Shown one piece after another: positions 4,241 through 62,151 of a stretch of DNA of 64,000 bases; the first letter of the stretch is position 1, and each line of letters opens with the position of its first letter. The position numbers were made by a program, and so were the translations under genes. The DNA is taken from positions 32,798,001 through 32,862,000 of the forward strand of contig OZ024757.1 of assembly GCA_964016885.1 (NCBI GenBank). The letters are read 5' to 3'. Source of the stretch: Eledone cirrhosa (lineage: Eukaryota). The notes under the pieces were generated by a model. That model was not told where the DNA came from, made no database searches, and saw only the letters and a list, made by a program, of their open reading frames with translations.

Positions 4241-4485
4241 TCTATCTACAACTGTGTAGAAATCTGTTATAATTCCATTCAAATTGGAAACATTAAAGGA
4301 ATTATCTTAACTTGTTCTGCTCTCTCCATATTCCTTATGTTTCTAAAGAATCCATCTCTTCTCTTTCTCTCCCCCATCTTTATATATATATGTGTGTATG
4401 TATGTATATATGTGTATGAGAATTGAACTCACAACCTCTCGATTGTAAGGCCAATGCTCTAACCACTAAGCCATGTGCCTCCGTT

Positions 4486-6220: not shown

Positions 6221-6989
6221 ATATATATACACACACACACACATATATACATACATACACAAATTTAAATTTTAAAAGACAAACAATGGAGAACATTAGA
6301 TCACCAAGATGACAAAAGAATCTTATCTTAGCATTGTTTGGCTTTCAAAATTTAAATTTGTGTTTTCTATTCAACAATGCTTCAAACAAGCTACAAAATT
6401 CTGATTATATATATATATATTGTCAAAACTTCTGCATGAAAAAATGGAGACACAAACAATTTTGATAGGAAAATAAAACCATGACATCATCTTCACTCAT
6501 CAGCTGTCAAACTGGAATGGATCCAGTATGATTTTTGACTCTGCTAAATCATAACAGGATGTTCAAAGTTAGTTTGTCTTGACTAATTCATTAAATCTGG
6601 TTTTTTTTTGTTTTGTAACGAAGAACTTCATATATAAACAGCTTCTTTGTGTTGTCTATATATCTTGCTGTGGTCAGGGTTGGAAGGAATTTATCATCAC
6701 CATCATCATCATCATAATAATAATCATCATCATCATCTTTACATCCATTTTCCCACGCTTGCATAGGTTGGACGGGTCCTCTTCAGCACAGCATCCCTCC
6801 AGTTGCCACATTCCTTCATTATCTCCTCTGTGAGTGTCAGCAATTTGAGATAATCTCTTACCACCTTAACCCAAGTCTTCCTGAGTCCACCTCTACTGTG
6901 GCTTCCGTCCTCTGGGATTTCCTGGCTCTTCTTCTTCTTCTTCTTTCTTCTCCTCCTCCTCCTCCGCCCCCTCATCCTCCCATTTATTT

Positions 6990-9522
6990 CTGACAGGAGC
7001 AGAGTCCTCAAACACTCCTTCCCGCAGGTCCTGTCAGAAACAATCATCTCCAACTGATGTGGCTGGATCCCCAAGTGAGACCAGCCAAGCTCATGGATGT
7101 TACCCAACCATCTTGCTCGGCATCTACCCCTGGGTCTCCTTCCTGTTGGTTTCGCCCATAAAATCTGTCCAGCGACTCTTTCCTGAGACATTCTAACCAC
7201 ATGGCCACAGTATCGGACCTGTGATCTCTGTCCAGTGACTCTTTCCTGAGACATTCTAACCACATGGCCACAGTATCGGACCTGTGATCTCTGTCCAGCG
7301 ACTCTTTCCTGAGACATTCTAACCACATGGCCACAGTATCGGACCTGTGATCCCTGTCCAGCGACTCTTTCCTGAGACATTCTAACCACATGGCCACAGT
7401 ATCGGACCTGTGATCTCTGTCCAGTGACTCTTTCCTGAGACATTCTAACCACATGGCCACAGTACCGGACCTGTGATCTCTGTCCAGTGACTCTTTCCTG
7501 AGACATTCTAACCACATGGCCACAGTATCGGACCTGTGATCTCTGTCCAGCGACTCTTTCCTGAGACATTCTAACCACATGGCCACAGTATCGGACCTGT
7601 GATCCCTGTCCAGCGACTCTTTCCTGAGACATTCTAACCACATGGCCACAGTATCGGACCTGTGATCTCTGTCCAGTGACTCTTTCCTGAGACATTCTAA
7701 CCACATGGCCACAGTATCGGACCTGTGATCCCTGTCCAGCGACTCTTTCCTGAGACATTCTAACCACATGGCCACAGTATCGGACCTGTGATCTCTGTCC
7801 AGTGACTCTTTCCTGAGACATTCTAACCACATGGCCACAGTACCGGACCTGTGATCTCTGTCCAGTGACTCTTTCCTGAGACATTCTAACCACATGGCCA
7901 CAGTATCGGACCTGTGATCTCTGTCCAGCGACTCTTTCCTGAGACATTCTAACCACATGGCCACAGTATCGGACCTGTGATCCCTGTCCAGCGACTCTTT
8001 CCTGAGACATTCTAACCACATGGCCACAGTATCGGACCTGTGATCTCTGTCCAGTGACTCTTTCCTGAGACATTCTAACCACATGGCCACAGTATCGGAC
8101 CTGTGATCCCTGTCCAGCGACTCTTTCCTGAGACATTCTAACCACATGGCCACAGTATCGGACCTGTGATCTCTGTCCAGTGACTCTTTCCTGAGACATT
8201 CTAACCACATGGCCACAGTATCGGACCTGTGATCTCTGTCCAGCGACTCTTTCCTGAGACATTCTAACCACATGGCCACAGTATCGGACCTGTGATCCCT
8301 GTCCAGCGACTCTTTCCTGAGACATTCTAACCACATGGCCACAGTATCGGACCTGTGATCTCTGTCCAGTGACTCTTTCCTGAGACATTCTAACCACATG
8401 GCCACAGTATCGGACCTGTGATCTCTGTCCAGCGACTCTTTCCTGAGACATTCTAACCACATGGCCACAGTATCGGACCTGTGATCCCTGTCCAGCGACT
8501 CTTTCCTGAGACATTCTAACCACATGGCCACAGTATCGGACCTGTGATCTCTGTCCAGTGACTCTTTCCTGAGACATTCTAACCACATGGCCACAGTATC
8601 GGACCTGTGATCTCTGTCCAGTGACTCTTTCCTGAGACATTCTAACCACATGGCCACAGTATCGGACCTGTGATCTCTGTCCAGTGACTCTTTCCTGAGA
8701 CATTCTAACCACATGGCCACAATATCGGACCTGTGATCTCTGTCCAGCGACTCTTTCCTGAGACATTCTAACCACATGGCCACAGTATCGGACCTGTGAT
8801 CTCTGTCCAGTGACTCTTTCCTGAGACATTCTAACCACATGGCCACAGTATCGGACCTGTGATCCCTGTCCAGCGACTCTTTCCTGAGACATTCTAACCA
8901 CATGGCCACAGTATCGGACCTGTGATCTCTGTCCAGCAACTCTTTCCTGAGACATTCTAACCACATGGCCACAGTATCGGACCTGTGATCTCTGTCCAGC
9001 GACTCTTTCCTGAGACATTCTAACCACATGGCCACAGTATCGGACCTGTGATCTCTGTCCAGCGACTCTTTCCTGAGACATTCTAACCACATGGCCACAG
9101 TATCGGACCTGTGATCTCTGTCCAGCGACTCTTTCCTGAGACATTCTAACCACATGGCCACAGTATCGGACCTGTGATCTCTGTCCAGCAACTCTTTCCT
9201 GAGACATTCTAACCACATGGCCACAATATCGGACCTGTGATCCCTGTCCAGCGACTCTTTCCTGAGACATTCTAACCACATGGCCATAGTATCGGACCTG
9301 TGATCTCTGTCCAGCGACTCTTTCCTGAGACATTCTAACCACATGGCCACAGTATCGGACCTGTGATCTCTGTCCAGTGACTCTTTCCTGAGACATTCTA
9401 ACCACATGGCCATAGTATCGGACCTGTGATCTCTGTCCAGCGACTCTTTCCTGAGACATTCTAACCACATGGCCACAGTATCGGACCTGTGATCTCTCAA
9501 TTTAGAGAAGTAGCAGCTCTAC
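6990..9522 (-). mobile_element. RTE-clade (Rex3/Expander-like) LINE 3' fragment containing an expanded array
   Basis: Minus translation VELLLL*IERSQVRYCGHVVRM...ILWAKPTGRRPRGRCRARW..LGWSHLGIQPHQLE resembles the RTE ORF C-terminus. Confidence 0.75.
7165..9497. repeat. 63-bp minisatellite, ~37 near-identical copies
   Basis: Unit CTGTCCAGYGACTCTTTCCTGAGACATTCTAACCACATGGCCACAGTATCGGACCTGTGATCY. Confidence 0.97.
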
Positions 9523-16176: not shown

Positions 16177-16892
16177 ATCATCATCATCATTTAACGTCTA
16201 TTTTTCATGCTAGCATGGGTTAGACGGGTTGTTCTACTGTGAGACAAGCCAGGTCCGATGACACTGACTCGTTCATATAGGACTGGTTTTGGCTTGGTTT
16301 CTATGGCTGGATGCCCTTCTTAACACCAACCACATTTACAGTGTGTCCTGGGTGCTTTTTGTTGTGACACCTACACAACCACCTTATAATGTGGACTAAT
16401 ATATATATATATATGTATATATTTCTTCATTGTACTGTGTTATTTGCTTTGTTATTTCTGTTTACTTTTTGCATATATAAATATATATATATATACAGGG
16501 TGTCCCAAAAATGTATACACACTTGGATTACCTGTACAGGCAATATCTATTAGAATCCTGTTGAAGTATGCACACATTTTTGATATCACCCTATTCTGGG
16601 ATCTTCTGAAACTCTTTCAAATATCACGCAGTAGGGTTTGAGCAGTGATTCTTTGCTTAAACTTTAATCTGTACTAATAAATATTTGCTCTACAGGTTTT
16701 ATATATATATATAGGAAAAGAGTCAAGACCCCGTCGGCTGACTCTTTTCCTATTACCCACTCTACTACCCTAAGTATTGAGTACTCTGGTGCGTTATGGT
16801 CCACCTGGTATTTTACCACACCCTCTCTGTTTTATATATATATATATATATTAATTCAAAATATTAATAAATATAGACATTCATGTAATCAA

Positions 16893-16966
16893 ATATATTT
16901 TATTATATATATATTTCGGAGGTACTGCGCTGTTTCCTCAGTACGTCCTCATCAGATAAAATATAT
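16893..16966 (-). ncRNA. Type I hammerhead ribozyme (minus-strand arm)
   Basis: Reverse complement of the motif at 17056-17127, with one extra TA in stem III. Confidence 0.7.
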
Positions 16967-17055
16967 AAATTGATGTATAACATACCTCAACTGTGTTAGC
17001 AGTCAAGACTGGAATTGAACCATCAGCACAGTTGAGGTATGTCATACATCAATTT

Positions 17056-17127
17056 ATATATTTTATCTGATGAGGACGTACTGAGGAAACAGCGCAGTAC
17101 CTCCGAAATATATATAATAAAATATAT
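17056..17127 (+). ncRNA. Type I hammerhead ribozyme with palindromic stem III
   Basis: ATATATTTTAT-CTGATGA-GGACGTACTG..CAGTACCTCC-GAAA-TATATA-TA-ATAAAATATAT: 11-bp stem I, intact core. Confidence 0.75.
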
Positions 17128-17139
17128 TTGATTACATGA

Positions 17140-17510
17140 ATCATCATCATCATCATCATCATCAGGTTTAGCGTCCGTGTTCCACGCTTGCATGGGTTTG
17201 GACGGGGGTTTTCCCACTTGAGGCAAGAGTGGTTGTCTTGCTCGCATAGGACTGTCTGGCGGGTTTTCTACAGTTGGATGCCCTTCCTAACACCAACCAC
17301 ATTTACAGTGTGGGGCTGGGAGGTTTTTACCGTGTTGCCTACACGGCCACATTACAGCGTGGACTGTCTGGCAGGTTTTCTACAGCTGGATGCCCTTCCT
17401 AACACCAACCACATTTACAGTGTGGGGCTGGGAGGTTTTTACCGTGTTGCCTACACGGCCACATTTACAGCGTGGACTGTGTGTTTTTTTGTCGTGACAC
17501 CTACACGATC
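17140..17510 (-). mobile_element. SINE family A (subfamily of 1-430) inserted in the palindrome
   Basis: (ATC)n tail and duplicated ~113-bp internal unit. Confidence 0.75.
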
Positions 17511-17651
17511 TCATTTGTTTCGGCCTGGATGTTGTGGGACCAACATAACTGTACATTGAAAGGGGCGGTGTGGATGGGGTGGAGGTGGTGGGACGGGGGG
17601 GTGTTTTGATAGAGATGCCTACTGAATGTCTATATTTATTAATATTTTGAA

Positions 17652-17707
<56 letters not shown>

Positions 17708-29858: not shown

Positions 29859-30489
29859 TTACACACAGAGCCAAGGTAAACCAAATGCTATATCTGATCA
29901 GAGCAGAAATATATATTTTTAGAAAATATGTTTATCCTATAAAAATACATTATTAATTTTTTCTTATTTCTCATTTCTGATTTATTTATAAATATTTATA
30001 AATCTTCCGAGTTACTCAGGCAGTAACTCTGTCTTGTTAACAGGAAAATCTTTTGGCTGATACTGAATAAATTTAATCTTATGACTATTTCTCATATATA
30101 ATGCAAACATCACCTACATCAATTTTGAACTTTAAAATTCTATTCTTTTCTGATATTTTCCTGCACATTATGTATACAGTTGTGCAGGGGTTACATCCCT
30201 AAAGCACCCGCAAAGAGTGAAAAACTACAAATATTTGACGTGGTCCATAAAAATGGCTATAAACATAAAAATATAACGTAAAATATAATAAAAAGGGCGT
30301 CCAAAAAAATAGGCCAGCAAATACGGTATGTTGTCATTTATAATTTAGCGTTAAAAAAATATATATTGCCACAAAATAGCCATTAAAAAAATCGTGGAAG
30401 ACATTTACGATTCCGCAAATATGTGGTGGTTTCCACAAACAATTATTAGTTTGGTTCTAAGGAAAATTCCACGAATAACTAGGATTGCA

Positions 30490-32152
30490 AATGTTGGGAC
30501 CATGAATGTCGGGACTGCGAAGGCCAGGAGTATGAATGTCGGGACTGCGAATGCCAGGGGTATGAATGTCGGGACTGCGAATGTCAGGGGTATGAATGTC
30601 GGGACTGCGAAGGCCAGGGGTATGAATGTTAGGACTGCGAAGGCCAGGGGTATGAATGTCGGGACTGCGAAGGCCAGGGGTATGAATATCGGGACTGCGA
30701 ATGCCAGGGGTATGAATGTCGGGACTGCGAAGGCCAGAGGTATGAATGTCAGGACTGCAAATGCCAGGGGTATGAATGTCGGGACTGCAAAGGCCAGGGG
30801 TATGAATGTCGGGACTGCGAAGGACAGGGGTATGAATGTCAGGACTGCAAATGCCAGGGGTATGAATGTCGGGACTGCGAATGCCAGGGGTATGAATATC
30901 GGGACTGCGAAGGCCAGGGGTATGAATGTCAGGACTGCAAAGGCTAGGGGTATGAATGTCGGGACTGCGAATGCCAGGGGTATGAATGTCGGGACTGCAA
31001 ATGCCAGGGGTATGAATATCGGGACTGCGAATGCCAGGGGTATGAATGTCGGGACTGCGAATGCCAGGGGTATGAATATCGGGACTGCGAATGCCAGGGG
31101 TATCAATGTCAGGACTGCGAAGGCCAGGGGTATGAATGTCAGGACTGCGAAGGCCAGGGGTATGAATGTCAGGACTGCAAAGGCTAGGGGTATGAATGTC
31201 GGGACTGCAAATGCCAGGGGTATGAATGTCGGGACTGCGAATGCCAGGGGTATGAATATCGGGACTGCGAATGCCAGGGGTATGAATGTCGGGACTGCGA
31301 ATGCCAGGGGTATGAATATCGGGACTGCGAATGCCAGGGGTATCAATGTCAGGACTGCGAAGGCCAGGGGTATGAATGTCAGGACTGCGAAGGCCAGGGG
31401 TATGAATGTCAGGACTGCGAAGGCCAGGGGTATGAATGTCGGGACTGCGAAGGCCAGGGGTATGAATGTCGGGACTGCGAAGGCCAGGGGTATGAATGTC
31501 AGGACTGCGAAGGCCAGGGGTATGAATGTCGGGACTGCGAAGGACAGGGGTATGAATGTTGGGCCTGCGAAGGCCAGGGGTATGAATGTCGGGACTGCGA
31601 ATGCCAGGGGTATGAATGTCGGGACTGCGAAGGACAGGGGTATGAATGTCGGGACTGCGAAGGCCAGGGGTATGAATGTCAGGACTGCGAAGGACAGGGG
31701 TATGAATGTCAGGACTGCGAAGGACAGGGGTATGAATGTCAGGACTGCGAAGGACAGGGGTATGAATGTCGGGACTGCGAAGGCCAGGGGTATGAATGTC
31801 AGGACTGCGAAGGCCAGGGGTATGAATGTCAGGACTGCGAAGGCCAGGGGTATGAATGTCAGGACTGCGAAGGACAGGGGTATGAATGTCGGGACTGCGA
31901 AGGCCAGGGGTATGAATGTCAGGACTGCGAAGGACAGGGGTATGAATGTCGGGCCTTCGAAGGCCAGGGGTATGAATGTCGGGACTGCGAATGCCAGGGG
32001 TATGAATGTCGGGCCTGCGAATGCCAGGGGTATGAATGTCGGGACTGCGAAGGCCAGGGGTATGAATGTCGGGACTGCGAAGGCCAGGGGTATGAATGTC
32101 GGGCCTGCGAAGGCCAGGGGTATGAATGTCGGGCCTGCAAATGCCAGGGGTA
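30490..32152. repeat. 30-bp minisatellite, ~55 copies
   Basis: Unit RGGACTGCGAAKGMCAGGGGTATGAATGTC; stop-free on both strands (MNVGTAKARG / PTFIPLAFAV). Confidence 0.97.
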
Positions 32153-32825
32153 CACTATATAATGCAAACACCACCAATATCATTTTTGAACTTTAAAATC
32201 CTATCCTTTACTGATATTTTCCAGCACATTATGTATACTTCAATATGGTTGTCTGGAAAACTGTTGCTTCTCTTCTCTCTTCCATGTAAGTGGTTGCAAC
32301 AATTTATATTACAATTGATATCATCATCATCATCACCATCTATCATCCTGTATCAGTATCATCATGTATCATCATCATCATCACCATCATCTACCATCAT
32401 CATCATCACCATCATCTATCATGTATCAGCATCATCTATCATCCTCATCAGTGTTATCATCATAATCGCCATCACCATCATCATCATCACCACCCTCCTC
32501 GTTGTCATCATCATCGCCATCATCATCTTTGCAATCATCATTATCATTATCATCACCACCATCATCATCATCGTTGCTGTCATTATCATCAATATCATCA
32601 TCAATATCATCATCAATATCATCATCATCATTATCATCATCCTCACTACCATAATCATCACTATGATATGGGTTGGACAGGTCTCCTCCCTACACAACAT
32701 TTTACCACTTGTTGCAGTTCCTTGTCGTCTTCTTGATGTTCAGCATCTTGAGATCAGCTTTCGACACTTCTTCACTTCTCTTGGCACTTCTTTGCCGAAT
32801 TATTGTTATTATTTGTTTTCGCAAG

Positions 32826-36049: not shown

Positions 36050-36055
<6 letters not shown>

Positions 36056-36246
36056 CAGTCGATCGACTTTCATCAAATTGGACCTAGGAAACAATGTTTC
36101 CATTGGTCTTTCCAATTGCTAATATATATATATATATTAGCAATTGGAAAGACCAATGGAAACATTGTTTCCTAGATATATATATTAGCAATTGGAAAGA
36201 CCAATGGAACCATTGTTTCCTAGGTCCAATTTGATGAAAGTCGATA
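36050..36246. repeat. Palindromic element centred on (TA)n with a duplicated right arm
   Basis: TCGACTTTCATCAAATTGGACCTAGGAAACAATGTTTCCATTGGTCTTTCCAATTGCTAA and its reverse complement; related copy at 37090-37203. Confidence 0.8.
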
Positions 36247-36591: not shown

Positions 36592-36656
<65 letters not shown>

Positions 36657-36660
<4 letters not shown>

Positions 36661-37090
36661 TCATCAACGTTTACATCCATTCTTCCATGCTAGCATGGGT
36701 TAGACGGGTTGTCCTGTTGTGGGCAGTGTCCAGTCGGCTGACCTTGTCTTGCTCACTCAAAGAACTGATTCTGGCTTGATTTCTACAGCTGGAAGCCTTT
36801 CCTAACACCAACCTCATTTACAGTGAGTGCTGGGTGCTTTTTTTCCGTGGTGCCTGCATGTCCACTTTACAGTGTGGGCTGGGTGCTTTTTTGCTGTGGC
36901 ACCTCCACAACCACTTTGCAGGGGAATGATAGGGACTCCAGTCCTATCATCTCATTTCTACAGCTGAGTAAACTGGAGCAATGTGAAATAGTGTCTTGCT
37001 CAAGGAAACAACACATCACCCGGTCTGAGAATTGAGCTCACAATCTTTCGATTACAAGCCCAATGCTCTAACCACTAAGCCATGTACCTT
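36657..37090 (-). mobile_element. Full-length SINE family A (long variant)
   Basis: tRNA-like head, core and tail. Confidence 0.8.
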
Positions 37091-37199
37091 CGATCGATTT
37101 TCATCAAATCGGACCAAGGAAACAATGTTTCCATTGGTCTTTCCAATAGCTAATACTATCTATCGGTCACAACTCCATATATCGAAAGTTGATCGACTG

Positions 37200-37230
<31 letters not shown>

Positions 37231-37235
<5 letters not shown>

Positions 37236-37900
37236 GTGCAAAATTCTTGAGATCCATGGACGAGTTCTCTCCAGCAGACTCTATGTCCAGCTAACCCAGT
37301 CTCCTTTGTGTCACTTTTGGGAGGCTCCCGTACAAATCTCAGTTCTTCATCCTCAGTGTATACTGATTAATGTTCAGAGCCATCCTCAACATTCTTGTGT
37401 AACACCCATCCACCATCTGAGTGAGTCTCTTGGTCAGTAGCCAAGTCGCTACACCACATCCATCCAGTGTTGTGCACAGAGCCTTGCCAGGGGTGTAAAG
37501 TTTCAAGGTCGTTAAGGGGAAAACTAGAAGGTGCTCCATAGTTTGTAATTGCCCGCATTGGCAGTTGGAATCATCTTTTGATCTTGTTGGAAATCATGCA
37601 CTCATGAGCATTTCAAGGAGCCAAGTGGGGGAAACTAGGCCCAGTTGCTTAATCTGCTCAACAAGGATGTTGTTGAGACCTTGTTGTTTTGCATGGTTAT
37701 GATTGCTGCCTCTAATTCATTTTTTGTGAAGGGACTTGTGCAGCTGGTGGTTTCTTGGCTGAGCACGCCTGGTATCTTGGGTAAATTTGGTCTCTGAGGA
37801 TGGTGATCTGGGTTACCTCGGCTGTTCAGTAGCAACTGGTAGTCTGTAAGTTGAGACCTTGACTGAGACTTTGTGTAGTCATTTCCCAATATCCGTATAG
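37231..37900 (-). mobile_element. Degraded RTE-type LINE fragments
   Basis: LTQMVDGCYTRMLRMALNI and SPFTKNELEAAIITMQNNK in the minus frames. Confidence 0.55.
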
Positions 37901-38212
37901 CCTTCTAGGGTTTCCTGCTGCTATATGACACTTTCAACCAACTCCTGCCACTTCTTCTACCTGCCCTCCATCATAGAGTTGGTCAGGGTGTCCCCGCATT
38001 CCCAGGTGTCAGTACCAAAGGGGTCATCTTCAAAGAGTTGGGTGTACTCTTCATAAATCTCCTTTGCATCATTGGAGAGGCCCTGGATGTAGTTGGTGTG
38101 ACATCCTTCAGGAATATTCTTCCTATATGGCTAGTTACCTTTTCTACTGTGTGAATGTATGTGTGTATATAAGAGAGTATTGAAGTTTGCTTGAAGCATT
38201 GTGGAATAATAA

Positions 38213-40367
38213 AAAAATTTGGTCATTTTGGAAGCCTCAACAATGCAGATGGGTAAATCTCCGGGTAACAGAATCCGGTGGTGAAGAGAGAGATGTAAGA
38301 GAAAATGTAATGTATAGTGTGTAGAGGAATGTAGGAAAGAGTGGAAAAATAATAACACGAGATAGAGTTACCTTGGAAGAGATTTAAATGTCCCTATATT
38401 TCAGATTTCACGTCCATCAACTGGGGTTTTTTCCAAGGGGGAAAGTTTTTAGTCGGAGAGTAACGGTATGTGGCCTCTGTTGTCCACCGTTTGTGTACAA
38501 CTGAGATATTCTGTAGAGCATGCGTAATAGCTGTGGTCAAGCAAAGGTCGAGGCAGTTCCATATAGTATGGGAGTGGGATGGTGCTTCGCCATCATTCCA
38601 TTATACTACCTATATTCAGTCTTTGATAGTGGCAGTGTTGGTAGTCTGCCTGGTTGTCATTTGTTGGTCGGTGGATGGTGGGTGCACTATACACACAATA
38701 ACAATCATTCGAATGCCACTGTGTATGTGTGTGCATGTGTTGTTGTTTTGTTTGTTTACACCAGCCATCTCGTCTCGCTTCTCTCGGATCGGTTATTTAT
38801 TTGTGGTCCTAGGCGTTTGATCCAAAGTGCTTCCTTGATTCTTAAAGTGCCGACGTTGCGTTCTGTTGCTAACTGGGACAATGGGACTTCCGTCTTTGTT
38901 TCTGCATTTAGTTACGTGTTTCCGGAAAGACGAGGCCTGGATGTTGATGTGCTCCTTGATCCGGATATGTAGTGGCCGGATTGTGCTACCGATATAGTAG
39001 TAGTTGCACTTATCACATTCTACCTTGTATACAACACACGTGAGTAAGCAACAGTTCGTTTGGCGCATTGGACAGTTGCTGAGGGAACACGCGTCAGTCA
39101 ATTTCCCGGGTTTTCTGGAGAGGCATCCCCATAGGGAGGGCCCGAATGGGCCAGGTGGATGTCAAGGGCCTCTCTCCATATAGCCCTGCGGATAGCGTTG
39201 GTGGTTTTCTCGCCCAGGTGCGGGATTTTAAGGAAGCACTTGCCTTGGGTGTCTCTCTGCCTCTTGCACCTGGTATCTCTTACTCTGCTTGTAAGCGAGG
39301 GTGGGTATCAATTCATCTTCAGCACCCTGAGGAACCGCTTGGTGTGGGTGACACCACTCACGGGATCGCTGCATCTGTTTTTAATCCACATGATCTCGTT
39401 CGTGATGTACCCTCTTTTAGCACTGTTAGGGAGGGCAGATTTGTAGTGGACGAACAAGTCCCTGCAGGCTGCCTAGCGGTAGAAGCTGGTGCGGATCCCT
39501 CCCTACTCCGTGATGTTGATTCGGAAGTCGAGGAGGGCAAGGGACCTGTCGTCGTCAGGGTGTTCAACACTGAAGTCAATATTCTCGTCCGTGTTGCTGA
39601 ACATCTTGTAAATCCCGCACGCCATCTCCTGGGAAGACGTGAGGATGTCGTCCACGTATCTTCAGAAGGCGACGGCGTTGGGGTGGCAGGCGTTGAGTGC
39701 CTTGCGCTCGAGGCTGTCCATGTACGAGATCACTAGCACACCAGACAGGCTAGAGCCCATGGGTAGCCCTGTGGTTCGCCGGTATTTTGGTCGAGAAAAC
39801 TGAAATATGTGTTGTCGACGACGACGGATAGGAGCTGGTGGATGTCAGTGGGGGTGAGCTCGAAGCAGTGTAGGTTGGTAGATTGAACACGTTCTATCAG
39901 TATATCGACGGCCGGGACCGAGGTGTAAAGAGCAACCACATCAAGGCTGAAGGCATACCTGTTAGCCTTTCTGGTGTCGGGATCCATTTGATGTAGGTGC
40001 TCCAACACTTCCTCGGAGCTGTTTACGTGTCCCGCAAGGTGTCCAGGAGGGGTCTAAGTATTCTGGCTAGGAGCCTAGCTAGGTCCTTCCACGCTCGATA
40101 CAATAGGCCTGATCTTCAGGTCAGGTCCCTCTTTGTGTCTTTTCACGAGGTGATAGGAGGCGGGTAGTCTGCTGTTCCTGGTGAGGAGGTTGTATCTGAG
40201 CTTCCGCCGGTCACAGATGTTGGTCCAGGTGGCGTTGAGCACGGGAGTGATTCCTGTGACTTTAGAGTAGAGGGTGTTGGAGGGCTAGGGTGTTGTAGGC
40301 CTCTCTGCTGATGACGCAGAAATCTTTTCCCTTGTCAGAGGAGAGGTAGATGAGGTTCCTTGATTTC
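38213..40367 (-). mobile_element. Penelope-like element, 5'-truncated and defective (left arm of giant palindrome)
   Basis: RT motifs SLDVVALYTSVP, GLPMGSSLS, RYVDD; GIY-YIG domain VVYKVECDKCNYYYIGSTIRPLHIRIKEH. Confidence 0.9.
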
Positions 40368-40373
40368 CAATCT

Positions 40374-42535
40374 GAAATCAAGGAACCTCATCTACCTCTC
40401 CTCTGACAAGGGAAAAGATTTCTGCGTCATCAGCAGAGAGGCCTACAACACCCTAGCCCTCCAACACCCTCTACTCTAAAGTCACAGGAATCACTCCCGT
40501 GCTCAACGCCACCTGGACCAACATCTGTGACCGGCGGAAGCTCAGATACAACCTCCTCACCAGGAACAGCAGACTACCCGCCTCCTATCACCTCGTGAAA
40601 AGACACAAAGAGGGACCTGACCTGAAGATCAGGCCTATTGTATCGAGCGTGGAAGGACCTAGCTAGGCTCCTAGCCAGAATACTTAGACCCCTCCTGGAC
40701 ACCTTGCGGGACACGTAAACAGCTCCGAGGAAGTGTTGGAGCACCTACATCAAATTGATCCCGACACCAGAAAGGCTAACAGGTATGCCTTCAGCCTTGA
40801 TGTGGTTGCTCTTTACACCTCGGTCCCGGCCGTCGATATACTGATAGAACGTGTTCAATCTACCAACCTACACTGCTTCGAGCTCACCCCCACTGACATC
40901 CACCAGCTCCTATCCGTCGTCGTCGACAACACATATTTCAGTTTTCTCGACCAAACATACCAGCAAACCACAGGGCTACCCATGGGCTCTAGCCTGTCGG
41001 GTGTGCTAGTGATCTCGTACATGGACAGCCTCGAGCGCAAGGCACTCAACGCCTGCCACCCCAACGCCGTCGCCTTCTGAAGATATGTGGACAACAGCCT
41101 CATCCTCACGTCTTCCCAGGAGATGGCGTGCGGGATTTACAAGATGTTCAGCACCACGGACGAGAATATTGACTTCAGTGTTGAACACCCTGACGACGAC
41201 AGGTCCCTTGCCCTCCTCGACTTCCGAATCAACATCACGGAGCAGGGAGGGATCCACACCAGCTTCTACCGCTAGGCAGCCTGCAGGGACTTGTTCGTCC
41301 ACTACAAATCTGCCCTCCCTAACAGTGCTAAAAGAGGGTACATCACGAACGAGATCATGCTGATTAAAAACAGATGCAGCGATTCCGTGAGTGGTGTCAC
41401 CCACACCAAGCGGTTCCTCAGGGTGCTGAAGATGAATTGATACCCACCCTCGCTTACAAGCAGAGTAAGAGATACCAGGTGCAAGAGGCAGAGAGACACC
41501 CAAGGCAAGTGCTTCCTTAAAATCCCGCACCTGGGCGAGAAAACCACCAACGCTATCCGCAGGGCTATATGGAGAGAGGCCCTTGACATCCACCTGGCCC
41601 ATTCGGGCCCTCCCTATGGGGATGCCTCTCCAGAAAACCCGGGAAATTGACTGACGCGTGTTCCCTCAGCAACTGTCCAATGCGCCAAACGAACTGTTGC
41701 TTACTCACGTGTGTTGTATACAAGGTAGAATGTGATAAGTGCAACTACTACTATATCGGTAGCACAATCCGGCCACTACATATCCGGATCAAGGAGCACA
41801 TCAACATCCAGGCCTCGTCTTTCCGGAAACACGTAACTAAATGCAGAAACAAAGACAGAAGTCCCATTGTCCCAGTTAGCAACAGAACGCAACATCGGCA
41901 CTTTAAGAATCAAGGAAGCACTTTGGATCAAACGCCTAGGACCACAAATAAATAACCGATCCGAGAGAAGCGAGACGAGATGGCTGGTGTAAACAAACGA
42001 AACAACAACACATGCACACACATACACAGTGGCATTCGAATGATTGTTATTGTGTGTATAGTGCACCCACCATCCACCGACCAACAAATGACAACCAGGC
42101 AGACTACCAACACTGCCACTATCAAAGACTGAATATAGGTAGTATAATGGAATGATGGCGAAGCACCATCCCACTCCCATAGTATATGGAACTGCCTCGA
42201 CCTTTGCTTGACCGCAGCTATTACGCATGCTCTACAGAATATCTCAGTTGTACACAAACGGTAGACAACAGAGGCCACATACCGTTACTCTCTGACTAAA
42301 AACTTTCCCCCTCGGAAAAAACCCCAGTTGATGGATGCGAAATCTGAAATCTAGGGACAATTAAATCTCTTCCAAGGTAACTCTATCTCGTGTTATTATT
42401 TTTACACTCTTTCCTACATTCCTCTATACACTATACATTACATTTCCTCTTACATCTCTCTCTTCACCACCGGATTCTGTTACCCGGAGATTTACCCATC
42501 TGCATTGTTGAGGCTTCCAAAATGACCAAATTTTT
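40374..42535 (+). mobile_element. Penelope-like element, 5'-truncated and defective (right arm of giant palindrome)
   Basis: SDKGKDF, RPIVSS, AFSLDVVALYTSVP, QTTGLPMGSSLSG, YVDN, LALLDFRI, GIY-YIG (41647-41955); ends in (TA)n. Confidence 0.9.
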
Positions 42536-42549
42536 ATATATATATATAT

Positions 42550-49013: not shown

Positions 49014-49111
49014 ACTCACAAACACACATACACATGTATAATCCCTATTGAGCCGTCTTTGGATTTTAGCCTTCACTATTATTATTATTATATATATATA
49101 TATATATATAT

Positions 49112-49458
49112 ATCATCATCATTTCATCATTTCATTTTACGTCCACTTTTCCCTGCTGGCAAGGGTGGGACAGGAACTGATTCTGGCTTGGTTTCTACAG
49201 CTGGATGCCCTTCCTAACACCAACCTCATTTACAGTGAGTGCTGGGTGCTTTTTTGCCGTGGCACCTCCACGACCACTTTGCAGTGGAATGATATGGACC
49301 CCAGTCCATATCATCTCATTTCTACAGTTGAGTAAACTGGGGCAATGTGAAATAAAGTGTCTTGCTCAAGGAAACAACACATCACCCGGTCTAAGAATTG
49401 AACTCGCAACTTTTCGATTGCAATGCCAATGCTCTAACCACTAAGCCATGTGCTTCCA
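49112..49458 (-). mobile_element. Full-length SINE family A
   Basis: Near-identical to 5888-6220. Confidence 0.85.
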
Positions 49459-49570
49459 TATATATATAAATATATAACCAAAGATTAATATGGTTCATTG
49501 ATTACTCAATGAATATAGTTTTACAATAGATTAGAAGCACTCTACAAAGAAGTTTTCTGGTGTTATTAAT

Positions 49571-49946
49571 ATTATTCAGAATATTAATAAATGAAAACAT
49601 TCACATAATCAAAATATATGTTTTATTATATATATTTCGAAGGTACTGTGCTGTTTTTTCAGTACGTCCTCATCAGATAAAATACATGAATTGATGTATG
49701 ACATACCTCAACGGTCTTGATGGTACAATTCCAGTATTGGCAGTACTGGAATTGAACCATTCAATTCCAGTACTGCCAATACTGGAATTGAACCATCAAG
49801 ACCATTGAGGTATGTCATACATCAATTCATGTATTTTATCTGATGAGGACGTACTGAAAAAAACAGCACAGTACCTTCGAAATATATATAATAAAACATA
49901 TATTTTGATTATGTGAATGTCTTCATTTATTATTATTCTGAATAAT

Positions 49947-57609: not shown

Positions 57610-57643
<34 letters not shown>

Positions 57644-58365
57644 CATAATATATTAATAAATGGAAACTATATTTATAAAACCATATTTATTTTATTATAC
57701 ATATTTCAAGGGCCACCAAGGCAAATTATGGTGCGCTTTCATCAGATAAAATAGAGATTTGTTTTATAAATAAATATTGACATACCCGGAAAAAAAGACA
57801 ACCTTAACGGTTGGAGCTTCCTGGATAGTGGAGATATTACATTTATTGAGGGTGATAGGAAATTATGAGTGAGTATGCAAATGAGTGTCCGAAAGGTTGA
57901 AAAGATAACGGTTTATTTAAATTAAACTGTTGGAAGAAGGTGATATGTGAGGGAGAGAGAAAAAAAGAAAAAAAGAAGAAAGAAATGAGAAAGATAGAAG
58001 AGGAAAGAATGAACGATTATATATATATTGACAGTGAAAATAGCGTGCATAAGAGATGAGTTTCAAGAGTTTAAGCTTGTTGAATCCCAACAAATTAAAT
58101 ATAACCTCTGCATATATATATACATATATGTAGGGATATATACTTTATTATTATTATTCTCCTCTTGGTCGAGATAAAATTTGGTCGTTTTGACTGCTGC
58201 TATTTATAGTGGTAGTAGACTGACCCCCCTGCCTCTGCTTCTATCTTTACACACGGCACTGGACAGAATTGCTTCCACATCATTCATTCTCATCTCGGGA
58301 ACAATTTTGAATAGCGCCAGTTCGTAATTTGAACTCGGGAATTTTATATTCTCCGAGTGAAAAGA

Positions 58366-58452
58366 ACCTTCTGACGAGAGTTTATCTTTTCAATGGAAGG
58401 CCGCAAGGACTGTCCATTTATTTTTGAGACTCGAAACCGATTCGGTAAAGGT
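58366..58452 (+). ncRNA. Complete type I hammerhead ribozyme motif
   Basis: ACCTT-CTGACGA-GAGTTT..AGACTC-GAAA-CCG ATT CGG-TA-AAGGT. Stems I, II and III all pair; GUA cleavage triplet ends at 58447. Confidence 0.7.
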
Positions 58453-58520
58453 AACCATAGTGAGTACAGTGAATTTTTTTTTTATTTATTTTGAAACTTT
58501 TTCTTATTTGCTAAACCTTG

Positions 58521-59143: not shown

Positions 59144-60954
59144 ATTATAATTATATATATTGATATTATTTTTATTCTTTTAGTAGGTTCGAGAAACTGT
59201 AAAGTGAAGTTAATCCCTTTAGGACAAATGGAATATCTTTCATTCAATTCCATCCTTTACAACTTGAAGACTGGTTCTTTTCAAAGGAATTTCATTGGAA
59301 ATTGTTACATTTTAACATGACACCACTGCTACGGTCACCATTGCCACCGCTGGCTAATTTAACCCTCTTAACAGCATGGCTACATCATAGCATGGGCAGT
59401 TAACTTTAGTTTGTTCTTCTATCAACCCCTTCCAACACCTCTACGTCGTTTACCAAGATGTCTTCTTCTTCAACTGTGTACTGCTGCCAACTGATCAATA
59501 TGATGTCACAGCAAACAGATCAAAGTTCTCTGAAGTCTTTGAAAGATTTTGACCTGTCCTTTGAACACAGCTTGGCTCCTGCCACTCTGATTTCCCTGTC
59601 GTATGGATTTTTATTTTTACTGACATGATTTGTCATCATTACTAATACCATTATTAATATTATTATCATTATTATTATAGAAAGCATTATTATTATTATT
59701 ATTATTATTACCATCATCATCATTATGAATCTGCAATCAAACAAAGGAATATAAATATTAGGGAAATTAAAAAAAAACTCTAATAATAATAAATTATATA
59801 AACTAATAAAAAGACAAAAACAAGCAAACAGTGATGCCAAAGCAAGTGTCATAACAAAAATAATAATAATTGATTTTTTTTTTCTTTAGAGGATATTGTT
59901 GATGAGAGGGAGATAACCTTTAAATTACAAACAATCTTGGTCAATGAGGACTGACCTGGAAACTATTGTCATTTCACAAATTATCAAACAACAGTAAAAA
60001 AGAAAAGAAATGAAAAAAAAAAACAATAGTACCAAATCAAATTCAGGATTCATTTTTTAATGTCATCAGTGATAATTATAATTTTAAAACAAGCACTGAA
60101 ACAAAAATTTCTTTAAGCTGCTTCTTTTTCTTCACCCACTTATTCCTGAGAGGGTCGTGGGGGCAGAGTCCTCAAACACTCCTTCCAGTGGGTCCTGTCA
60201 GAAGCAACCGTTTCCAACTGTTCATGGATGACCAAGTTCATGGATGATAGAATTACATTATAAATTTATATGAAATATAGTATCTTGTTGTAAGCTGAAA
60301 TAACCTGAATGATGTTTTGTCAAAAACCAATGAGAAACCACTTAAGAGGTAGTTTGCAAAAATTATATCACAGAAGAAAATTTTATTTTACATTTGGTGA
60401 AGCCCAAGTAATAATGTTATATACATTTTAAGGAGAGGTATTGTCAATTTAATTGATTTTCAGTGATTGGTGTGCTACGGTATTTTTCTCAGCCTCCACA
60501 AGAAAGATAAAAGGCAAAGTCAGCCTTGGCAGGATTTGAACTCAAATGTAAAAGTGTGTAATTACACATTGCAAGGCATTCATTTATAACCTGTTCCTCT
60601 ACTGTTTAAGCTCGTAATGTCCTGTACCACATCAAACAACATTTGCAAGACATTCTTGAAAAGTACAAAGCTGCATTATGACTACAGCATATTAAAATTG
60701 TATGTCTTTACTTTGATACTGCAAGTTTCACAACGATCTGTCTGCTAGTAAAGACATTATAAACATTGGAATTAACAAACCTTTTTTTAGAGCTATTTTC
60801 TGCAAAATCATTACAGGATGTTAAGACTTAAGCTATTCATTGCTTTTGTACTCTGAGCATTAATAAGAGAATAAGACTGTCTGCTCATTTTGGCTCTTTC
60901 ATTTCATCTCATACCGTTATAGATCAGTAAGGAGGGACTTTAATTCTCTCCAAA

Positions 60955-62151
60955 ATGGAATCAAACAATCTTGTACCATCTGAGATATCATCAGGGTTTA
61001 TTTACACACTGTCGATGGCCCTTGTGATTGAGTGTATTGGAGGTTTGGTTTGTAATTTCATCGTCCTCATCACATATCACAAAAGCTTCAAGATCCAAAA
61101 GACAGAAAACTTCCTCATCATTAACTTAAACATTGTTGATATTCTCATTTGTGTCACAGCCATTCCTCTCACACTCGTCCTACTACAGAGCTACCATGAA
61201 CAATATTACATCCTGCCATGTTTCTTCCACCAAGCTAATATCACATTTGTTAGTACGGCCAGTGCTATTTCTCTGCTCACCATCAGCATTGACCGGTATG
61301 AAGCCGTAGTAACACCATTAAGGAAAAAAGTTATCCAAACCAATATTAAAAAGACTCTTCTTGCCATTTGGACAAGCTCCTTATTTGGGTTGTGTTCCCC
61401 CTTTATTGGGGTCGACTTTTCTTCGTTGCCACCAATAACAGATCTACATCCATCCACCTCATCTTCAATATCGCCAAATTCAAATTCTTCAAACTCATCA
61501 TTCCATGAACTTCACAAAACCTTCACCAGTTCTGAAGATGTAACAGTGTCTGGCGGAGGTGTGAGTTGGCACTGGAAGCTGCATACATGCCAACACTTCA
61601 TATATTCAGCACATTTATTCCCTTTCCACGACATTTACTTCATGTTTTTCTTCTTCCTCTGCATGACAGGCATGGTTGTCTGCTACTACTACATATTTCG
61701 AGTTGCCAAACAACGACTCGCTGTCCGTTTGGCCTTGATTCGGGCCACATTGGCCTTCACAGGGGGCAGCACTAGTGAGGAATCAATTTGGAAACTGCAA
61801 GACCGCCGTCTCACCAAGATGACCCTTGCCATTGTTTCATCATTCGTCATATGCTGGGGACCCCATATAATTATTTCCTGTATTGGTCTCGCCCTCCACG
61901 ACATCACAGCAGAGATGCTACGCTTCATTGGACTTGCAGTTGCTTTCTCAACTGCGCTGTTGCACCCACTGCTTTACACGTTCATGCGACAAGACTTCCA
62001 GCATGCTCTCAGAAGCAAGTGGATGACACAGAAAGTACTGAGGAGGAATTTCAGGAATCGCAAAATTGGGACTGATGCTTCTGCTGCACAAAATGGAAGC
62101 ATCTGGACCTTGACCAGGGACACTATCAATGACACAACATCTGCAGGTTGA
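60955..62151 (+). CDS. GPR22: Class A orphan GPCR, GPR22-like; intronless coding region
   Basis: 398-aa ORF with seven hydrophobic segments, NLNIVDILICVTAIPLT, CFFHQA, IDRY, CWGP and LLHPLLYTFMRQDFQ (HPxxY replacing NPxxY, as I recall for GPR22). Plausible splice acceptor TATAG at 60918-60922 just upstream of the ATG. Confidence 0.85.
   Translation: MESNNLVPSEISSGFIYTLSMALVIECIGGLVCNFIVLITYHKSFKIQKTENFLIINLNIVDILICVTAIPLTLVLLQSYHEQYYILPCFFHQANITFVSTASAISLLTISIDRYEAVVTPLRKKVIQTNIKKTLLAIWTSSLFGLCSPFIGVDFSSLPPITDLHPSTSSSISPNSNSSNSSFHELHKTFTSSEDVTVSGGGVSWHWKLHTCQHFIYSAHLFPFHDIYFMFFFFLCMTGMVVCYYYIFRVAKQRLAVRLALIRATLAFTGGSTSEESIWKLQDRRLTKMTLAIVSSFVICWGPHIIISCIGLALHDITAEMLRFIGLAVAFSTALLHPLLYTFMRQDFQHALRSKWMTQKVLRRNFRNRKIGTDASAAQNGSIWTLTRDTINDTTSAG

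Follow-up and report, generated by a model that had tools for sequence, protein, structure and literature searches.

An inverted repeat with a hammerhead motif on each strand in Eledone cirrhosa, probably the 5'-truncated end of a Penelope-like element (PLE)

Architecture of locus A and its hammerhead motifs

We analysed a 64,000-nt window of the Eledone cirrhosa assembly (contig OZ024757.1; the whole stretch of DNA under study), which contains a head-to-head palindrome, hereafter locus A, set in a (TA)n target. The left part of the target (16833-16851) is followed by the left arm (16852-17003, - strand), which is the end of the element in antisense with its 3' end at the (TA)n. Beyond an apparent 31-nt loop (16996-17026), the right arm lies on the + strand in a proximal part (17004-17141) and a distal part (17623-17654), and the right part of the target occupies 17655-17705. 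A gapped alignment of 16879-16990 with 17032-17141 gives 109 matches, one mismatch and one gap of a single TA unit (99% identity); without gaps, complementarity between 16895-16995 and 17027-17127 is 95%. Across an insert in the right arm, the outermost 51 nt match without exception (16833-16883 with 17623-17673; 100% complementarity). A previous sequence-only reading of this DNA had described a mirror-image stretch with a hammerhead motif per strand, and the near-identical arms and their (TA)n setting confirm that it is real. No target duplication could be read inside the (TA)n at locus A or at the related copy B (see below), and neither locus includes a direct (head-to-tail) copy of the kind seen as a pseudo-LTR partial tandem.

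The right arm is split by a 481-bp SINE-family insert (17142-17622, - strand), flanked by a 5-bp target duplication, TGAAT, at 17137-17141 (+) and 17623-17627. The insert body and its (ATG)n tail match a repeat with dozens of matches in the window. This copy includes a 112-bp internal duplication and has no tRNA-like head (A or B box); among five relatives scanned, an A box was found in two and a B-box-like match in two. Thus, the proposal that a SINE interrupted the right arm with duplication of TGAAT stands as to the insertion and the duplication, but the inserted copy lacks a tRNA head. Because the insert and its duplication are confined to one arm, the palindrome is a genomic feature that predates the insert, as had been claimed, and is no product of the reads. 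Elsewhere in the window, tRNA-like heads occur at 4416-4473, 36655-37095 and 49020-49460 (all - strand), and the latter two run into the same SINE body as the right-arm insert.

At the centre of locus A, the left arm ends at ACTGC (16999-17003, antisense) and the right arm starts 5 nt later, at 17004. The sequence at 17004-17026 is ordinary family sequence in the right arm, and its mirror is missing from the left arm, which lacks about 20 nt near the centre (the mirror of 17007-17026). The apparent loop is composed of the inversion junction (16996-17003) and this unpaired family sequence. A second reading of the centre has a 2-nt loop (17005-17006) and 15 nt replaced by 4. Under either reading, it is likely that the original loop was tiny and that the 31-nt spacer is mostly family sequence. 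The loop of about 30 nt noted previously is therefore present as a spacer, but it is not a neutral loop, consisting mostly of family sequence lost from the left arm.

Each arm contains a type I hammerhead motif. In the right arm (17056-17127, +), an 11-bp stem I pairs 17056-17066 with 17117-17127, the core comprises CUGAUGA (17067-17073) and GAA (17105-17107), and stem II (17074-17104) consists of 3 bp, a C.C mismatch, 6 bp and an 11-nt loop. The self-complementary 8-nt helix III (17108-17115) precedes a predicted cut after A17116. The left-arm motif (16893-16966, -) has its core from 16955 and a predicted cut after 16904; its helix III is one TA unit longer, a 10-nt palindrome. Full cores are read from the centre outward on both strands, in agreement with the description of two intact type I hammerheads with an 11-bp stem I. 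The type I core (C3 U4 G5 A6 N7 G8 A9, G12 A13 A14, A15.1-U16.1, H17) is present in both arms of A, both arms of copy B and a diverged relative, copy C. A strict scan yielded six type I motifs in the window; 200 local shuffles contained 0.03 on average, and 194 of them had none. At locus A, Rfam returned no hammerhead family, either at the gathering threshold or among 12 matches with E up to 10; its matches there were sub-threshold miRNA-type hairpins only. A single, unrelated type I motif lies at 58362-58456 (+), with 4 bp in helix III and a long insertion in stem II; its monomer has a predicted fold of -21.6 kcal/mol, and it has no other copy in the window.

To describe the RNAs that locus A might yield, we used folding predictions. 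In a single-arm RNA of A, helices I and II are predicted to form (pair probabilities 0.62-1.00) and helix III is not (0.00), while two copies cofold as a double hammerhead joined by a helix III of 8 intermolecular base pairs (-37.6 versus 2 x -15.7 kcal/mol). The A hammerhead is accordingly predicted to cleave solely when dimerised through helix III; since the two motifs lie on opposite strands, they cannot dimerise within one RNA. An RNA reading through both arms is predicted to fold into a hairpin of -187 kcal/mol in which the sampled pairs of stems I, II and III are each at 0.00. Because such a read-through RNA would form this long hairpin, the locus A copy is likely dead. For copies B and C, the minimum-energy structures of monomers and dimers showed no clean double-hammerhead fold.

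Related copies in the window and in sequencing reads

Copy B (49477-49946) is a head-to-head palindrome of the same family as A, with hammerheads at 49676 (-) and 49840 (+). Its left arm runs to 49744 and includes a 96-nt tail (49477-49572) that is present in this arm only and ends at TA-rich DNA; its right arm runs from 49772, and both arms begin at ACTGC. The centres of the two palindromes differ: A has a single junction, while B has a nested sense-then-antisense insert (49745-49771), a 27-nt double fold-back of 15 nt sense and 12 nt antisense of the adjacent sequence with a 3-nt loop. The arms are 99-100% identical within A or B and 88-93% identical between A and B, and they cluster by locus. 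This pattern is expected if each palindrome was made from one template. Copy C (57640-57790, bounds approximate; - strand) is a diverged single-arm relative that ends in (TA)n, with a hammerhead core at 57745 and no inverted arm. All five arm ends of A, B and C abut TA-rich runs.

Pairing in helices I and II is largely kept in these copies. Six base pairs of helix I are invariant across five rows (two each from A and B, one from copy C). Stem II of copy C has a different sequence in which pairing is kept through five double changes, with A-U at 10.1-11.1 in place of G-C. Across helices I and II, 96% of cells are paired, and the five double changes all come from copy C, so that the covariation reflects one diverged copy among five rows, and in that copy three of the nine pairs of stem II form only with a one-base bulge.

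Neither A nor B contains an RT or endonuclease ORF. Copy B has a 32-codon frame that starts at an ATG at 49600 (-), approximately 22 nt past the cut site, and continues through the tail. This frame has no homologue among 1.84 billion proteins, and its best match to 38 PLE-like proteins has an E of 0.083. A frame in the right arm of A, containing LNHQ, stops at the TGA at 17033-17035, and its resemblance to PLE C-termini is weak. Based on the sequence, this TGA is possibly the end of a putative parent ORF. Read variants in 17009-17035 fall at first, second and third codon positions 5, 1 and 4 times, which is coding-leaning but not significant (p ~0.1, by hand).

Four of 23 sequencing runs, all from one study, held 55-84% of the locus words and were mapped on 16970-17141. 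The mapped pieces comprise 1184, 61 and 8 contigs (X1 being the set of 1184) and 1675 raw reads, mostly 82-99% alike. The hammerhead-repeat family is therefore large and diverged. Loose ends before 17004 in X1 (29 contigs) and X4 (4 contigs) agree in 24 of 30 letters by eye, which indicates that longer copies exist, that the family extends 5' and that A and B are 5'-truncated. In other loose ends, antisense tail is joined to sense arm, at 17004 in X5 (3 contigs) and at 17062 in X4 (1 contig). The two loose-end motifs each match the tail of B once in the window, so that the tail is family sequence. Of four opposite-strand joints among the reads, one has a forced orientation. The joint 17021/17059 (60 raw reads with 2 starts, X21) is head-to-head with another pivot, given that X21 has no depth left of 17000; the joint 17028/17087 may be locus A's own centre, and joints in RAD libraries can be chimeras. 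At a further X4 loose end, past 17036, two contigs share 17004-17036 and diverge right after the TGA at 17033-17035. This might fit a related family that shares the end of the ORF and not the sequence downstream.

The reads also show which positions of the motif vary. Among the 40 of 64 variant rows listed, none falls on the 12 hammerhead core positions; variation is seen at the free N7, in the loop of stem II and at position 17112 of helix III. A G at 17112 accounts for 56% of depth in X1, 66% in X4, 43% in X21 and 0% in X5, related families such as that of copy C being included, and copy C itself has G at the equivalent position. By inspection, G17112 breaks the TA run and keeps the 8-bp dimer helix via two G.U pairs. 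The available part of PMC4209133 describes PLE hammerheads with a palindromic helix III that act as dimers and have low activity. The suggestion that stem III imitates the (TA)n target is thus not needed: a palindromic helix III is a known dimer-forming feature of PLE hammerheads, and relatives often have G17112, in which the TA run is broken and dimer pairing is kept. Within the A subfamily, the TA run of helix III may have a targeting role.

A PLE of another family serves as a control within the window. This element (38209-42539) is a 5'-truncated and decayed RT + GIY-YIG PLE arranged head-to-head over 4.3 kb; its loop is 6 nt and its arms share 98.7% identity. From the centre outward, each arm contains a decayed RT and then a GIY-YIG domain (Pfam RVT_1, E 9e-5; GIY-YIG, E 0.004; both under curated cut-offs). 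The RT piece matches 37 proteins among 323 candidates, and all three that were scanned carry RT followed by GIY-YIG. One of these three aligns to both arms (tblastn E 3e-100 and 1e-81). Because this palindrome has the geometry of A, a protein-coding PLE in the same genome leaves the head-to-head shape. As a parent of A it was rejected, as it has no DNA similarity to the A family. The element also contains a cysteine-rich linker and, near 42325-42357, a degenerate hammerhead-like motif. Adjoining it at 37900-38140 (-) is a decayed coding fragment, which by eye we take to resemble a LINE reverse-transcriptase ORF. Nearby, another small repeat (36052-36245 and 37093-37202) is present around (TA)n as inverted copies, both tail-to-tail and nested, and a motif scan found no hammerhead core in it.

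Origin of the palindrome

Altogether, locus A is probably a 5'-truncated PLE end (a pseudo-LTR) and was likely inverted when its first-strand cDNA snapped back and templated its own copy during insertion. Because the parent RT-endonuclease gene of the A family was not found, we infer PLE membership, for which several hallmarks are present: a sense hammerhead with a palindromic helix III near the 3' end, an inverted 5'-truncated copy (A and B), a one-sided 3' tail (left arm of B, absent in A) and a (TA)n or AT-rich target. The available part of PMC8557442 describes PLEs with an inverted 5'-truncated copy at the 5' end, a 30-40-bp tail that is often at one end, and (TA)n targets, and it names the origin of the inverted copies as a remaining task. 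PMC3846280, again in the portion available, describes head-to-head inverted pseudo-LTRs whose junction palindromes were read as self-priming on an antisense template, and a TATATATA together with an initiator-like TCACT motif in one pseudo-LTR. The 96-nt tail of B speaks against a snap-back PLE end, as the tails that the available text of PMC8557442 describes for PLEs are 30-40 bp.

In the snap-back reading, a PLE GIY-YIG endonuclease would nick (TA)n, and the RT would use this nick to prime copying of the element RNA from either of two 3' start sites, one of which includes the tail. In both A and B, synthesis would halt at the same site, ACTGC, which lies approximately 70 nt 5' of the hammerhead core. 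The 3' end of the cDNA would then fold back via a 3-5-nt loop and prime its own copy, once in A and twice in B, and the hairpin would next be attached to the opposite end of the target and resolved to give a palindrome of double-stranded DNA. Later, about 20 nt would have been lost from the left arm of A, and the SINE would have inserted into its right arm. Near-identical arms could also be obtained through homogenisation by gene conversion.

The same PLE end might instead have been inverted by twin priming, where a dimeric RT-endonuclease would prime both target strands, using two RNA copies, and two cDNA 3' ends would be joined mid-way. In the available part of PMC11167929, a PLE protein, modelled as a dimer, acts in vitro on both target strands, cutting and extending each, with AT-rich targets and two RT starts bounding the tail. 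The loose ends at 17004 and 17062, as arms with non-overlapping content, fit twin priming or a later deletion better than simple snap-back. Conversely, the centre of B is a nested sense-then-antisense copy, as successive fold-backs leave, and the 3-nt loop of B and the 6-nt loop of the large PLE would require two independent cDNAs to stop at nearly the same base. We consider twin priming rather unlikely for locus A. That locus A is a PLE end, by snap-back or twin priming taken together, is highly probable.

The palindrome might itself be mobile, a retrozyme-like element of hairpin or ambisense type that makes use of both hammerheads. Two of the three family-related copies in the window are palindromic, with both cores intact and the same ACTGC pivot. 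The centres and ends, however, differ between A and B, the arms cluster by locus, folding predictions for the read-through RNA leave no hammerhead, the same shape is seen in a protein-coding PLE from a different family, and copy C has no inverted arm. Such a mobile palindrome is very unlikely. The sequence-only reading had implied a hairpin element of its own kind in which both ribozymes function, and this is not supported: the arms are one duplicated sequence, the predicted read-through hairpin abolishes the hammerhead fold, and the geometry is that of the published PLE inversion. The two A hammerheads are likely one motif that was duplicated, the second being a passenger of the inversion, and A is likely a known class of insertion product carrying a known PLE hammerhead and not a new two-way ribozyme element. 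For comparison, the available part of PMC11167929 reports the hammerhead to be dispensable for insertion in vitro.

We give little credence to a further variant, a non-autonomous mini-PLE that would prefer to fold back at ACTGC, a site that in longer copies lies within an initiator-like TCACT, and whose palindromes would be transcribed on both strands, outward from the centre. If it were true, two near-identical RNAs would be partners in a trans double hammerhead, and ribozyme activation would depend on inverted insertion in place of a tandem array; such an insertion could be re-mobilised.

A non-PLE hammerhead repeat (a non-LTR retrozyme or SINE-like element) that was inverted later by fold-back repair at an AT-rich fragile site is likewise very unlikely. 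No parent ORF was found in the window or by the protein search with the tail frame, and type I hammerheads occur in retrozymes too (available parts of PMC7229834 and PMC6765202). Against this, A is not part of a head-to-tail array, B has a one-sided tail, the 3' ends of both palindromes lie exactly at (TA)n, and the pivot is inside the element and not in the flank. Finally, a fold-back artefact of reads or assembly is hardly credible: none of the listed contigs from the four mapped runs spanned the whole centre of locus A and depth at 16970-16993 was zero in all four (a mirror match to 17029-17052 may explain this), but the SINE with its duplication is in one arm only, the arms differ by an arm-specific substitution and a TA indel, the centre is asymmetric, and 4 of 23 runs hold most of the locus words (one study, which may include the source sample).

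Relation to known systems and other features of the window

The closest likeness is to the insertion units of endonuclease-positive PLEs, as far as the available parts of PMC3846280 and PMC8557442 describe them. Shared features are the head-to-head inversion, junction palindromes, 3' ends facing outward, a one-sided tail, a (TA)n target and a sense hammerhead near the 3' end. Unlike these units, the A and B copies have no ORF, the tail is 96 nt instead of 30-40, and B has a double fold-back. The motifs also resemble PLE type I hammerheads in the available part of PMC4209133, with an intact core, an enlarged helix II, G10.1-C11.1 (A and B), a palindromic helix III, a predicted dimer, and motifs on opposite strands approximately 110 bp apart; that source reports opposite-strand hammerhead pairs ~100-700 bp apart in Schistosoma mansoni. 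They differ from the hammerheads described there in the longer helix I of A (11 bp), the 8-10-nt AU palindrome of helix III, the lack of an unpaired base between A9 and stem II, and the A-U at 10.1-11.1 in copy C.

The family is also similar to non-LTR retrozymes, which are short, non-coding and low in GC, carry a type I hammerhead and have a proposed PLE origin (available parts of PMC7229834 and bioRxiv 10.64898/2026.07.22.740005). Retrozymes are tandem in the available descriptions (PMC7229834, PMC6765202, bioRxiv 10.64898/2026.07.22.740005), and unlike non-LTR retrozymes, with their head-to-tail arrays and circular RNA, A is inverted, and each strand of A and B has a single motif. PLEs occur in an octopus genome according to PMC13282606, the available text of which has no mention of hammerheads. 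The literature passages covered contain no description of A's particular family, which the supplements of PMC4209133 and PMC8557442 may include. Motif scans of viral contigs gave 0 and 0 loci, and those of metagenome contigs gave 0 and then 3. We rejected these three as chance matches, as they had no blastn match to the family and no hammerhead fold, and two of the three lay in long ORFs.

MITE and foldback DNA transposons are short palindromic non-coding insertions at TA, and A is such an insertion in form. Unlike in these transposons, the ends vary between and within copies (those of B differ by 96 nt, and C is single-armed), the centres of A and B differ, and a ribozyme motif is carried. 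Hammerheads on both strands are a screen criterion for viroid-like RNAs. Locus A, as read here, calls for caution: in an animal genome, inversion of a PLE is enough to place a hammerhead on each strand. In A and B the inversion junction can be read base by base, including two successive fold-backs in B, and a census of A's large family could separate snap-back from twin priming.

The window includes other features. A 406-codon open frame at 60931-62148 (+) matches rhodopsin-family seven-transmembrane receptors (Pfam 7tm_1, E 1.6e-26), and long tandem arrays at 6742-9518 and 30355-32193 yield repetitive open frames.
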